From positions 1 through 5,118 of the IMG/VR virus record IMGVR_UViG_3300029517_000155: a stretch of 5,118 bases of DNA. One strand, given 5' to 3'. Positions 1 through 5,118 of the stretch are shown in pieces. The notes below the pieces were generated by a model. That model did not search any database, had not been told where the DNA came from, and worked only from the letters and a program-made list of their open reading frames with translations. How positions within the stretch are numbered: position 1 is the first letter of the stretch; every line of letters begins with the position of its first letter. The translations under genes and the position numbers were made by a program. The stretch comes from a virus (taxonomy: Duplodnaviria; Heunggongvirae; Uroviricota; Caudoviricetes).

Positions 1-55
1 ACTTAAAGGTATTAAAAACAACTTTTTGTCTTTTTACCTTCCCGTTTCGCTCAAG
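1..55. other. host chromosomal flank, B' arm of an attB(lambda)-type site
   Basis: Reverse complement reads CTTGAGCGAAACGGGAAGG directly 3' of the lambda core, matching the B' arm of E. coli attB as I recall it (..CTGCTTTTTTATACTAACTTGAGCGAAACG..). Recalled, not searched. Confidence 0.6.
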
Positions 56-70
56 TTAGTATAAAAAAGC
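56..70 (-). other. lambda-type attachment site core (O) at an attR (P-O-B') junction
   Basis: Exact 15-mer TTAGTATAAAAAAGC on the + strand, the reverse complement of the lambda common core GCTTTTTTATACTAA. It has lambda P-arm-like sequence on one side and attB B'-like sequence on the other. Confidence 0.85.
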
Positions 71-212
71 TGAACGCGAAACATTAAAAACCATTAATAT
101 CAATGTGTTACAATATCTTTAGTCTAAAAAATAGACTACATAATGCTACAAAACACAACATATCCAGTCACTATGAATCAACTACTTAGATAGTATTAGT
201 GACCTGAGACAG
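71..212 (-). other. lambda attP P-arm-like region with Int arm-type binding sites
   Basis: Reverse complement closely resembles the lambda P arm (..caggtcactaatac.atctaagtagttgattcatagtgactggatatgttgtgtttt..cgtttc.cgttca-core). CAGTCACTAT at 165-174 is a perfect match to the arm-type consensus (P2-like), and the reverse complement of 195-206 is a P1-like site (caggtcactaat). Confidence 0.8.
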
Positions 213-257
213 AGCATTAGCGCAAGGTGATTTTTGTCTTCTTGCGCTACTTTTTTG
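213..257 (+). terminator. tI / sib-like intrinsic terminator hairpin downstream of att
   Basis: GCGCAAG (220-226) pairs with CTTGCGC (241-247) and the stem extends to about 10 bp via flanking TTA/TA(A/C); it is followed by TTTTTT (251-256). It lies about 160-190 bp from the att core on the P-arm side, where lambda tI/sib sits, and resembles the lambda tI sequence as I recall it. Confidence 0.6.
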
Positions 258-419
258 TTATCAAACATGTCGCACTCCAGAGAAGCACAAAGCCTTGCAA
301 TCCAGTGCAAAGATTTGTGTGCCTCAGTTTTGTCTAAGTGTTCTACTGAAAACATAGTAAAATCGGCAACAGCTGGAAATCATTCAATACTCGCACTATC
401 GAAAGTTCACCAGCCAACC

Positions 420-460
420 GCAGCACGTTCTTGCATACGACGTGCTGCGGTTTTCTTTAT
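420..460 (+). terminator. candidate rho-independent terminator
   Basis: Perfect 9-bp stem GCAGCACGT (420-428) / ACGTGCTGC (440-448) with an 11-nt loop, followed by GGTTTTCTTTAT. The T-tract is on the + strand only. Confidence 0.35.
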
Positions 461-609
461 GATTTATGCACAATGGACAATTTGAAATTATTGATGATTG
501 TATGGTGCATCGTTTTCTGAACCTACACTGATTTTTTGGTATAGCCTTGCCTAGCCAGTCTTACCGGATCAAACTCTTCGCTATTGCAATACTAACCAAA
601 ATCATCAAT

Positions 610-638
610 TTGACAGCGATTAACCAGAATAATAGTAT
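610..638 (+). promoter_or_regulatory. candidate sigma70 promoter for the diguanylate cyclase gene
   Basis: TTGACA (610-615), a 17-bp spacer, then TAGTAT (633-638). A (TA)n tract at 683-694 lies in the predicted leader, and the AGGTG Shine-Dalgarno at 701-705 is 5 nt before the ATG at 711. By eye only. Confidence 0.25.
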
Positions 639-710
639 ACTATCACCAGTAAGAAATTATCGTTATTTGTAGCGATACATATTATATATATATCATTCTC
701 AGGTGCGTAC

Positions 711-2042
711 ATGATTATCAACCAGGTACCTATAAAAATAAAAATCTTCATCTTTTTATTTTCATGCATCTCTATTATATTTTTGTTACTGCATGCAAAT
801 AATGGAATATACATAACACAAACAACACAAATAAGTTATAGTGTTTTCATTATTGGGCTTTTTTTCATAAACCTGATGATTTTTATTTTTCTATTGCTTT
901 ACTATGTTTCTAATCAGAGACAAAGTTATCTCTTAATTCTTTCATTCGCGTTTTTGAGCAACACGTATTATTTATTAGAAGTGGCTATTATTTCTTTATC
1001 TCCGTTAGGTAACGATTTATCTACAATCTATCAGAAATCAAATGATATCGCAATATATTATCTATTCCGTCAGTTCAGCTTTATATCTATAATCTTTCTG
1101 GCTGTTTATTCCACCAATGTTAAAAACAAAAGTGTTTTAGAAGATAAAAGAAACATAATAATTGTTGTTTTGTCAATATTAATTCTTTTTATTACTCCGT
1201 TTGTAGCAAAAAATCTAAGCAGTGACAATATAAAATATAGTCTTAATATTATACAATACTCGCTGAATCGTCATTTGCCGACGTGGAATATCGTGTACAC
1301 CAAAATAATATCAGTATTTTGGCTTGTATTACTTATCAGCTCATGCATCAGCATACGTAATTACTCAAAAATATGGTTGTGTATAATACTTATTAGTATA
1401 GTGTCAGTATGCAATAATCTAATTTTATTGTATTTTATTGATAAATCCCATCCTGCATGGTACATGACAAAATTTCTTGAATTGATATCAATGATTTATA
1501 TCATTTCAACACTCATGTATTATGTTTTCAGGAAATTAAATCATGCTAATCATATGGCAATTCATGATCCACTAACGAATACATACAATAGAAGATACTT
1601 TATTGACTCATTGAAGAATATATCAAAACACCATGATTTCTCAGTAATAATGTTAGATATTGACAATTTCAAAAGCATCAATGACAAATGGGGGCATCAT
1701 ATGGGTGATCAAGTCATAGTAATGGTTACCAGAATAATAAAAAAATCCATCAGGAAAGAGGATATATTAGGGCGCTTAGGCGGTGAGGAGTTCGGTATTA
1801 TCATTAAAGGTAATACTCAAAAGCTCTTGCTATCAATTGCAGAGCGAATCAGAAAAAACATTGAAGAGCAATGCTCGGAAAAATTATTATCGCATGGACC
1901 TGAGAAAATAACTGTCAGTATTGGTTGCTTTACTTCAAAAGAGAATAATCTCAGTCCATCTGAAATGTTAGTCAATGCCGATAAAGCGTTATATCAAGCC
2001 AAAAGAACCGGAAAAAACAAGGTGATAACTCACTCAAAATAA
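711..2042 (+). CDS. membrane-anchored diguanylate cyclase: about 8 predicted TM helices (MASE-like integral-membrane N-terminal domain) plus a C-terminal GGDEF domain; possibly DgcX-like
   Basis: 443-aa ORF with a good RBS. The first ~270 aa form about 8 hydrophobic stretches. The GGDEF domain starts at DPLTNTYNRRYF and carries an intact active-site GGEEF (nt 1779-1793) and an RxxD I-site (RKED, nt 1752-1763) five residues upstream. GC content is roughly 25-30 percent against about 50 percent in the flanking phage genes. Confidence 0.93.
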   Translation: MIINQVPIKIKIFIFLFSCISIIFLLLHANNGIYITQTTQISYSVFIIGLFFINLMIFIFLLLYYVSNQRQSYLLILSFAFLSNTYYLLEVAIISLSPLGNDLSTIYQKSNDIAIYYLFRQFSFISIIFLAVYSTNVKNKSVLEDKRNIIIVVLSILILFITPFVAKNLSSDNIKYSLNIIQYSLNRHLPTWNIVYTKIISVFWLVLLISSCISIRNYSKIWLCIILISIVSVCNNLILLYFIDKSHPAWYMTKFLELISMIYIISTLMYYVFRKLNHANHMAIHDPLTNTYNRRYFIDSLKNISKHHDFSVIMLDIDNFKSINDKWGHHMGDQVIVMVTRIIKKSIRKEDILGRLGGEEFGIIIKGNTQKLLLSIAERIRKNIEEQCSEKLLSHGPEKITVSIGCFTSKENNLSPSEMLVNADKALYQAKRTGKNKVITHSK

Positions 2043-2071
2043 ACACCTTTTTAAAATACAGCCCCAATAAA

Positions 2072-2104
2072 CTGCAGAATATTATCCCATATAATATCCT
2101 GCAG
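2072..2104. terminator. hairpin between convergent genes, possible bidirectional terminator
   Basis: CTGCAGAATATTAT (2072-2085) pairs with ATAATATCCTGCAG (2091-2104) at 13 of 14 positions around a 5-nt loop. It sits between the cyclase stop (2040-2042) and the minus-strand tfa remnant stop (2116-2118). The U-tract is weak on both strands. Confidence 0.35.
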
Positions 2105-2115
2105 TTCGTAATGCA

Positions 2116-2208
2116 CTATTCGATAATGGGTCCTGTTGGCCATTCAATATCCGGTGCAGTTGTTGTATTAACACGGTTCAGCAACACCCGATACTTCTTC
2201 CAGGCTTC
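2116..2208 (-). pseudogene. tail fibre assembly protein (lambda Tfa-like) C-terminal remnant
   Basis: Minus-strand translation [30 protein letters not shown]-stop is nearly identical to the lambda Tfa C-terminus as I recall it (..[32 protein letters not shown]). No N-terminal part is present, and it is in frame with the upstream pin remnant. Confidence 0.6.
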
Positions 2209-2442
2209 CACCACCAGCACGACAAGATGCCGCATACAGTGACCCAGTCAGTCCAGTTTCCAGACAACCAGTGCGTCACCTTTTTGAAGGCGCTTTAAAG
2301 CACGTTTTAATCCAGGTCGGCCTGTCCTTATTCCGCTTAATTTATCTTCAAATATTTGTTCACATCCTGCACAAACAAGAGCGTTTCGTTGCAGGTCTGT
2401 ATTCTGGTCATTTGTTGATACCCTTACATAGCCAATCAGCAC
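2209..2442 (-). pseudogene. serine DNA invertase (Pin/Gin/Cin/Hin family), N-terminal fragment with an in-frame stop
   Basis: From the GTG at 2442-2440 (GGGAG Shine-Dalgarno 7 nt upstream) it encodes (M)LIGYVRVSTNDQNTDLQRNALVCAGCEQIFEDKLSG.R..RPGLKRALKRLQKGD.LVVWKLD, matching the Pin N-terminus including the catalytic-serine motif YVRVSTNDQ. A TGA at 2248-2250 sits where Pin has Arg (KLD-R-LGRSM). Weak similarity continues ([12 protein letters not shown] vs LGRSMKHLISLV) and then switches to Tfa-like sequence, so the resolvase C-terminus and HTH are missing. Confidence 0.85.
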
Positions 2443-2496
2443 GCTGAATCTCCCGTCCAAAAGCACAAATCATGCCATGCAGGCCAGAAACCGCCA

Positions 2497-2522
2497 TTAT
2501 CTAAAACCTCGGTTTACAGGAA
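2497..2522. other. gix/pix-type 26-bp crossover site for a Gin/Pin invertase
   Basis: TTATCTAAAACCTCGGTTTACAGGAA has a reverse complement (TTCCTGTAAACC GA GGTTTTAGATAA) one mismatch from the Mu gix site as I recall it (TTCCTGTAAACCGAGGTTTTGGATAA). It is about 55 bp upstream of the pin start and exactly at the start of the tail-fibre variable-domain reading frame. Confidence 0.8.
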
Positions 2523-2723
2523 ACGGTAAATCAGGCTTCTGGCGCATTACAGAAAAACCAGAACGGCGCAGATATTCCGGGAAAAGATACCTTCACCAAA
2601 AACATTGGTGCCTGCCGCGCATATAGCGCATGGCTGAATATTGGTGGCGATAGTCAGGTCTGGACAACTGCGCAATTTATTTCGTGGCTGGAGAGTCAGG
2701 GGGCATTTAACCATCCTTACTGG

Positions 2724-3467
2724 ATGTGCAAAGGCTCATGGGCTTATGCAAATAATAAGGTTATTACAGATACAGGTTGCGGAAATATTTGTCTTGCAGG
2801 TGCTGTGGTGGAAGTTATTGGCACTCGCGGCGCAATGACCATACGCGTTACTACGCCGAGCACGTCCAGCGGTGGCGGAATTACTAACGCTCAATTCACT
2901 TATATTAATCATGGTGATGCTTACGCTCCTGGCTGGCGACGAGACTACAACACGAAAAACCAGCAGCCTGCATTTGCTTTAGGGCAAACAGGACGCAGGG
3001 TCACAAATGATAAAGCTGTTGGCTGGAACTGGAATAGCGGTGTTTATGATGCAGATATCAGTGGTGCATCGACATTAATCCTCCACTTCAATATGAATGC
3101 GGGGAGTTGCCCTGCTGTACAGTTCCGCGTGAATTACAGGAACGGCGGTATTTTTTATCGTTCAGCGCGTGATGGTTATGGCTTTGAAGCTAACTGGTCA
3201 GAGTTTTACACCACAACACGCAAACCCTCTGCGGGGGATGTTGGTGCATATACGCAGGCAGAATGTAACTCAAGGTTTATTACAGGTATTCGCCTTGGCG
3301 GTCTGTCATCTGTTCAGACATGGAAAGGCCCCGGCTGGTCTGACAGGTCAGGTTATGTCGTTACGGGTTCAGTTAACGGAAACCGTGATGAATTAATTGA
3401 TACAACTCAGGCAAGGCCAATTCAGTATTGCATTAATGGGACGTGGTATAACGCGGGGAGTATTTAA
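2724..3467 (+). CDS. phage side tail fibre protein, C-terminal variable (receptor-binding) segment; orphaned partial gene
   Basis: The open frame begins straight after the stop at 2502-2504, inside the pix site, and reads ..NQASGALQKNQNGADIPGKDTFTKNIGACRAYSAWLNIGGDSQVWTTAQF.. before the first ATG at 2724. This is typical of the variable C-terminal cassette of e14/Mu/P1-type invertible tail-fibre genes. There is no constant N-terminal part and no convincing RBS at 2724; the stop is directly followed by tfa. Confidence 0.75.
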   Translation: MCKGSWAYANNKVITDTGCGNICLAGAVVEVIGTRGAMTIRVTTPSTSSGGGITNAQFTYINHGDAYAPGWRRDYNTKNQQPAFALGQTGRRVTNDKAVGWNWNSGVYDADISGASTLILHFNMNAGSCPAVQFRVNYRNGGIFYRSARDGYGFEANWSEFYTTTRKPSAGDVGAYTQAECNSRFITGIRLGGLSSVQTWKGPGWSDRSGYVVTGSVNGNRDELIDTTQARPIQYCINGTWYNAGSI

Positions 3468-3469
3468 CG

Positions 3470-5118
<1,649 letters not shown>

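Follow-up and report, generated by a model that had tools for sequence, protein, structure and literature searches.

Genes and features of the window

The window, by which we mean the whole analysed stretch of 5,118 nucleotides (positions 1 to 5,118 of the virus record IMGVR_UViG_3300029517_000155), carries a diguanylate cyclase gene, a fused pair of fragments from a serine invertase gene and a tail-fibre assembly gene, half of an invertible tail-fibre segment and two further fragments of lambda-type phage genes (Table 1). It is the bio-proximal end of a lambdoid prophage that has eroded, lies at attB-lambda and carries dgcX. In the related finished genomes, this DNA comes after ybhB-bioA. The gene dgcX has been described as always directly adjoining lambdoid prophage DNA, mostly at attB (Richter et al., PMC4287979), and its GC content of 27-31% compares with 46-55% in the prophage parts of the window. 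A good sigma-70-like site (TTGACA-17-TAGTAT) was observed at 610-638, upstream of the dgcX ATG at 711; the scan for promoters and terminators gave nothing beyond shuffled expectation. Positions 357-454, which are 87% identical to the left end of the cryptic prophage Qin of K-12, contain a GC-rich hairpin (418-451) with a T run after it.

Table 1. Positions, strands and supporting evidence for the features of the window.
Feature	Position	Strand	Evidence or remark
dgcX, MASE4-GGDEF diguanylate cyclase	711..2042	+	Pfam; AT-rich cargo at the bio-proximal prophage end
tfa 3' end, codons ~164-194 and TAG (2116-2118)	2116..2210	-	tblastn, Pfam, co-linearity with E24377A
pin-like patch, codons 65-77, including TGA and His68	2211..2251	-	2211-2237 exact to e14 pinE
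gin-type invertase 5' part, codons 1-64	2252..2442	-	96% identity to D108/P88 gin
gin leader/promoter region, gene to crossover site	2443..2496	.	co-linear with D108 and P88
gix crossover site, 26 bp, single	2497..2522	.	TTATCTAAAACC-TC-GGTTTACAGGAA
Sv', variable C-terminal tail-fibre segment	2505..3467	+	96% to S' of D108, P88 and Mu; Pfam gp37_C
U', tail-fibre assembly gene of the G segment	3470..3985	+	Caudo_TAP, E 3e-33
lambda-type tail tip gene J fragment (second Ig-like domain)	~3986..4187	-	boundaries approximate
lambda-type terminase large subunit gpA fragment	~4188..5118	-	GpA_ATPase, GpA_nuclease; runs off the window

Of a Mu-type G segment only Sv'-U' is present; there is no Sv-U arm, no second gix and no constant part. 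The gix that remains matches the sites of D108 and P88 as well as those of EC958 Phi4 (Forde et al., Table 3). Its partner is missing, with no inverted repeat of at least 20 nt in window positions 2000-5118, so that the window lacks the two inverted 26-bp crossover sites that are retained in U14A, EC65 and EC958. The Sv' frame is open from the gix to a stop at 3465-3467 and has no constant part in its present orientation. U', which is 534 bp long in D108, P88 and SL124, ends five codons early, and the homology to these three stops at 3985. In the adjoining J fragment the Pfam domain Ig_J_second was matched at residues 314-379 of the 3957-5117 translation, and the gpA fragment retains the ATPase domain plus the initial ~70 residues of the nuclease domain, with 98.6% identity between 4191-5118 and a terminase pseudogene of E24377A. 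A long open reading frame on the minus strand (3954-5105) is an in-frame gpA-J chimera that runs on into the cut end of U'.

The U'-to-J and J-to-gpA joints are plainly deletions, a second and a third such scar in the window. The whole window was not found in any complete E. coli genome, the best coverage being 79% with a break at 3985, and the U'-to-J-to-gpA joint seems rare, though each of its parts is common. Since one gix only and half of the G segment remain, nothing in the window can flip, and the locus is frozen and inert.

The invertase stub and its joint to tfa

The minus strand from 2442 to 2211 corresponds to codons 1-77 of a Gin/Pin-type serine invertase gene, and the minus-strand translation of 2466-2116 (VLLDGRFSVLIGYVRVSTNDQ...) passes from this invertase part into a tfa part in one frame. 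The true start of the gene is the GTG at 2440-2442, which matches the start of D108 gin and of the RefSeq CDS WP_001378636.1, and not position 2466. In the RefSeq/PGAP annotation this CDS is a "recombinase family protein" of 64 aa, and PGAP already splits the scar into this protein and a "tail fiber assembly protein, partial". The Pfam Resolvase domain (PF00239) was matched over residues 3-86 with an E-value of 1.2e-20, covering only profile positions 2-94 of 145, and the Mu Gin structures 3UJ3 and 4M6F could be aligned 1:1 with the stub from residue 2 to about 78 (E ~1e-41). Gin consists of a catalytic N-terminal domain (residues 1-100, with S9 as the catalytic serine), an E-helix (101-137) and a DNA-binding domain (138-198) (PMC3575834). 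Measured against this architecture, the stub breaks off three quarters of the way through the catalytic domain, and the E-helix and DNA-binding domain are missing altogether; no Pfam match to the helix-turn-helix domain (HTH_7, PF02796) was obtained. The C-terminal part of Gin or PinE past residue ~77 was not found in any frame of the whole window by tblastn with full-length Gin and PinE, so that the refuting condition named in the earlier note, a continuation into a complete resolvase C-terminus in another frame, does not hold.

The catalytic Ser9 is kept (2416-2418) and the YVRVST motif is present. Neither of the catalytic arginines of the conserved DRLGR motif (R65 and R68 in Gin, R68 and R71 in gamma-delta) is left: the TGA that the earlier note had placed at an arginine position of the invertase is found at 2248-2250 and replaces catalytic Arg65, the first Arg of the motif, and the second, Arg68, is changed to His (CAC, 2239-2241), giving D-stop-L-G-H. 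With its catalytic domain incomplete, its E-helix and DNA-binding domain missing and a TGA at Arg65, the stub is dead and cannot recombine DNA, and its product would be at most a 64-residue peptide. Two ways around the truncation were considered and rejected: read-through or recoding of the TGA was ruled out, the C-terminal two thirds of the invertase being nowhere encoded, and tblastn ruled out that the invertase goes on in a different frame or at some other place in the window.

The joint to tfa lies between 2210 and 2211, within the interval of about 2205-2215 expected from the earlier reading. Sequence of pin type extends up to ...CGTGCTGGTGG (to 2211) and tfa sequence starts with TGGAAGCCTGGAA (from 2210); the joint is flush, with an ambiguity of at most 3 nt (2211-2213). 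No convincing microhomology was found at the joint, where a TGG repeat is present on both sides and GGA counts only given one point change. Downstream of the joint, the C-terminal end of the Caudo_TAP domain (PF02413) was matched at residues 79-105 of the translation (profile positions 104-130 of 131, E 3.5e-10), which is the C-terminal end only and not the full-length domain (131 positions; ~194 aa in lambda Tfa). By tblastn, residues 163-194 of E24377A Tfa were placed on 2214-2119 (E 2e-15), and in a protein alignment the conserved ...DIEWP end was common to the remnant, lambda Tfa, TfaR and TfaQ. The segment 2116-2208 is thus Tfa-like, as had been claimed, and the overall description of a dead, truncated invertase fused in frame and co-directionally to the 3' end of a lambda-type tfa was upheld by Pfam, the structural alignments and tblastn.

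Apart from the single TGA, no stop interrupts the frame between the GTG and the TAG of tfa, but joining of two fragments in frame is a one-in-three chance event and is evidence of nothing. The open frame and the 64-aa CDS called by PGAP could be taken to indicate that the chimeric frame specifies a functional protein, either an invertase made by read-through of the TGA or a Gin-Tfa fusion with a new role; however, with the E-helix and DNA-binding domain absent, Arg65 and Arg68 lost and a second stop present in the Phi4 allele of strain EC958, we regard this as extremely improbable. The scar is ordinary prophage wreckage and represents no new mechanism or family.

The invertase fragment is itself composite. 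From 2252 to 3985 the window matches gin-S'-U' with 96% identity to D108 and the P2-like phage P88 and with 94.5% identity to Mu. This Gin-type match ends at 2252, and over the 41 nt of 2211-2251 the gin genes of D108 and P88 diverge from the window, 27 of these nucleotides (2211-2237) being an exact match to e14 pinE. The TGA is located exactly at the switch from Gin-like to pin-like sequence. The N-terminus had been described in the earlier note as Pin-like with an intact catalytic serine motif; Ser9 is indeed intact, but codons 1-64 are Gin-like and the likeness to pin is confined to the short patch. No intact invertase with a Gin-like 5' part and the pin-like 2211-2251 was found in phages or E. 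coli genomes. A phage search with 2205-2330 (distant blastn) gave partial matches only, of Gin type over 2252-2329 and to invertases of P2-like phages over 2207-2281, and megablast of 2211-2442 against E. coli genomes gave two classes, either copies of the junction (100% coverage) or ordinary gin (2252-2442). Given that no intact parent was found, the stub would be either a further mosaic or derived from an unsampled lineage.

Distribution of the scar and inversion of the neighbouring segment

A 201-nt probe across the junction was found at a coverage of at least 80% in 536/5426 complete E. coli genomes. The identical joint together with the TGA is present at three or more prophage sites, attB-lambda/dgcX, Rac and trp-ompW, with the Rac copy found in PK8568 beside an intact pinR and the trp-ompW copies in THO-015, U14A, EC65 and EC958 Phi4. 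The same joint and codon-65 TGA were seen in alignments of EC958, THO-015, PK8568, SL124 and C1, and every copy examined carries both the TGA and the truncation. An assembly artefact or a chimeric contig is refuted by the identical joint in >500 independently finished genomes and has practically no probability left. Since the joint is common to 536 genomes at three loci it is not local, and the comparison indicates that the scar is old, common and mobile. The deletion within the window's own prophage that had been proposed in the earlier note is thereby contradicted: the scar is not a private event of this prophage.

The Rac copy of PK8568 is 100% identical to the window over 2211-2522, 80% identical over 2119-2210 and unrelated beyond. 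Across the three loci, the stub region 2211-2522 has an identity of 98-100%, as compared to 80% for the adjoining tfa remnant, and the leader (2443-2496) shows no difference between the dgcX and Rac copies. In the Rac prophage of PK8568 the stub-to-tfa scar is convergent with the intact pinR and the G segment has the opposite orientation to that in the window. Outside E. coli, in a scan with a 32-mer spanning the joint that included one genome per species and required an exact match, such that absence is weak evidence, the only match was in a 2.5-kb contig of a 'Bacillota' MAG (JAEWTL010000008.1). Positions 1-2500 of this contig are 99.6% identical to window positions 1-2443, and the contig is almost certainly mis-binned E. 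coli DNA, to judge from this identity.

The scar of a truncated invertase was already known. A "truncated invertase" with loss of the helix-turn-helix domain was published in 2014 for Phi4 of EC958 (ST131) (Forde et al., PMC4134206), without mention that this truncation is a fusion to tfa. In the same study, the 3106-bp segment of Phi4 was present in both orientations in culture, inversions of ~2-3 kb were detected in EC958 culture by long reads, and it was concluded that another enzyme must act in trans on the Phi4 segment (PMC4134206). Action in trans is established among these invertases: the e14 P segment is inverted by PinQ (PMC12529663).

Crossover sites of the Phi4 type are also present in U14A and THO-015. 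When EC65 was compared with U14A, the flanks were 100% identical and the 3119-nt segment between them was 99.8% identical and inverted, and the outer gix half-sites (GGTTTACAGGAA vs GGTTTACGAGAA) were exactly swapped at the common core ACCTCGGTTTAC. A corresponding difference was found at the dgcX locus, where E1316 and FMU073332 have Sv-U beside the same stub and the window and SL124 have Sv'-U'; the distal arm (614 nt) common to E1316/FMU073332 and SL124 is 100% identical and in inverse orientation. By these genome comparisons, and by the long reads of EC958, a segment with both gix is shown to be still flipped beside the dead stub by invertases acting in trans, and it is the identity of the acting enzyme that we infer. 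Because the truncation joint is a unique event, the flips postdate the death of the gene. Flipped copies could in principle also be acquired by homologous exchange with an infecting phage that carries the segment in the opposite orientation, but the exact half-site swap and the culture data from EC958 argue against such an origin.

In EC65, the Phi4 segment is in the orientation in which a tail fibre gene of 941 aa is intact, with a lambda-type N-terminus, a P88-type constant part and Sv'. In the other Phi4 orientation the same gene is a PGAP pseudogene, and its annotation therefore depends on the orientation that was assembled.

The high identity of 2211-2522 across loci relative to the tfa remnant, and the flipping of the segment beside a dead gene, raise the question whether the stub is kept by selection as a cis-element, that is, as a Fis-dependent enhancer and perhaps a promoter for the flipping in trans of an orphan G segment. 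The putative enhancer DNA in 2252-2442 is retained with 96% identity to D108 gin. Kahmann et al. (1985) reportedly placed the Mu enhancer within the invertase gene, and by its position this enhancer would fall within 2252-2442 of the window. The Hin enhancer is situated ~100 bp from a crossover site (PMC3798978). However, recent spread of one cassette explains the high identity equally well, nonsense mutations pile up in the stub, with a second TGA in Phi4, and the partner gix is gone from the window, so that any such role would be void for the window copy. We consider selection for a cis-element to be possible but rather unlikely. The same tentative standing applies to the more general idea that the dead stub is the retained Fis enhancer and gix of an orphan tail-fibre switch, kept flippable by lambdoid prophages in ~10% of E. 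coli through invertases borrowed from other prophages; if this were true, a single successful cassette, marked by the scar, would have spread from one prophage site to another, and its switch would since have been destroyed in the window.

Origin of the scar and comparison with known systems

From position 1 to 2213 the window is co-linear with ETEC E24377A (99.3%), in which a complete 194-aa tfa and an stf fragment come next after dgcX. Because E24377A is co-linear and has a complete tfa at the same place, the tfa end beside dgcX is in its native position, and the cassette would be the newcomer.

The feature is very probably a non-functional recombination scar in an eroded lambdoid prophage, which would have been made by cassette replacement and have spread, and which is dead in the window. 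According to this reading, a switching cassette of the Mu/P88 type, with the order constant S part, gix, Sv-U, U'-Sv', gix and gin, would have replaced the 3' portion of stf, together with most of tfa, in a lambda-type tail-fibre module. One crossover of the entry would have taken place in the tail-fibre gene; in EC65 the left joint is found just before the distal gix, where a lambda/Rac stf N-terminus (84-89%) passes into a P88-type constant part (91%). The right-hand joint would have arisen illegitimately, either flush or using no more than 3 nt of microhomology, and would have connected invertase codon 77 to tfa codon ~163 in a frame set by chance. Homologous recombination would then have carried the scarred cassette from one lambdoid prophage to another, with one crossover inside the short tfa remnant, which would account for identical stubs beside different tfa ends. 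Finally, in the window, a later deletion would have brought U' up against the J and terminase fragments, with loss of the second gix.

The direction of the two fragments follows from the source modules. In Mu and D108 gin has the same direction as S and U, and in lambda tfa has the same direction as stf; since both genes are co-directional with the tail-fibre genes of their modules, a co-directional gin-tfa order results when one module overwrites the other, and an ancestor with pin upstream of stf-tfa is needless because the overwrite gives the same order. Such an ancestor would be required if one internal deletion (from invertase codon 77 to tfa codon 163) had formed the joint, in a composite or tandem arrangement whose intact invertase preceded stf-tfa in the same direction. 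One deletion could leave a single flush joint, and the U'-to-J and J-to-gpA scars in the same window are plainly deletions, but the required layout was not found in any of the genomes or phages searched. Where the layout is known, com-mom or tail genes come after gin, and pinR and pinQ each face tfa convergently; furthermore, a deletion now seen in 536 genomes at three loci would have to be ancient and not local. An origin by deletion appears improbable, and replacement by a cassette is the simpler reading.

Under the replacement reading, the scar serves as a marker for the grafting of a Mu/P88-type switching cassette into lambda-type modules and traces how this cassette passed from prophage to prophage, the sites being attB-lambda, where the biofilm-related cyclase gene dgcX is also found, Rac, and trp-ompW (Phi4 of ST131). 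For annotators it means that one scar underlies two entries, each covering half of it: the 64-aa recombinase family protein and the partial tail fiber assembly protein. The exact swaps of gix half-sites across strains add to the published flipping of orphan segments in trans.

Among the systems compared, EC958 Phi4 has the same scar: EC958_1582 has the same joint and codon-65 TGA as the window and is ~98% identical over the stub, the mean column identity over the whole aligned stretch is 94%, and the proximal half of the gix is the same. Phi4 differs from the window in its location at trp-ompW, as opposed to attB-lambda by dgcX, in having both gix and an invertible segment of 3.1 kb where the window has one gix and half a G segment, in carrying a further TGA (codon 61), and in its tfa end. 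The tfa end of the window is closest to that of E24377A, whose Tfa is 91% identical to the remnant over the last 32 residues with an identical stop codon and downstream DNA, as compared to 72% over the last 32 residues for lambda Tfa. Relative to a complete Tfa, the window retains the C-terminal sixth only, residues 1 to ~162 being missing.

On the invertase side, the window shows an identity of 94-96% to the Mu, D108 and P88 counterparts in codons 1-64, the leader, gix, Sv' and U', and gin and Sv' are likewise divergently arranged. The genes of Mu, D108 and P88 have 193-197 codons and include the E-helix and helix-turn-helix, whereas the stub stops at codon 77, and in these phages gin is followed by com-mom or tail genes and not by tfa. 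The layout of the window is unlike those native to Mu, P1 and e14, as had been noted before. PinE of the cryptic prophage e14 is a serine invertase of the same subfamily with an overall identity of 74% to the stub, but it is not the parent of codons 1-64, and e14 has a different P segment with different crossover sites. In K-12, the pairs pinR-tfaR (Rac) and pinQ-tfaQ (Qin) resemble the window in that a serine recombinase gene adjoins a lambda-type tfa end; in these pairs the two genes are complete, separate and convergent, whereas in the window they are fragments, fused and co-directional.
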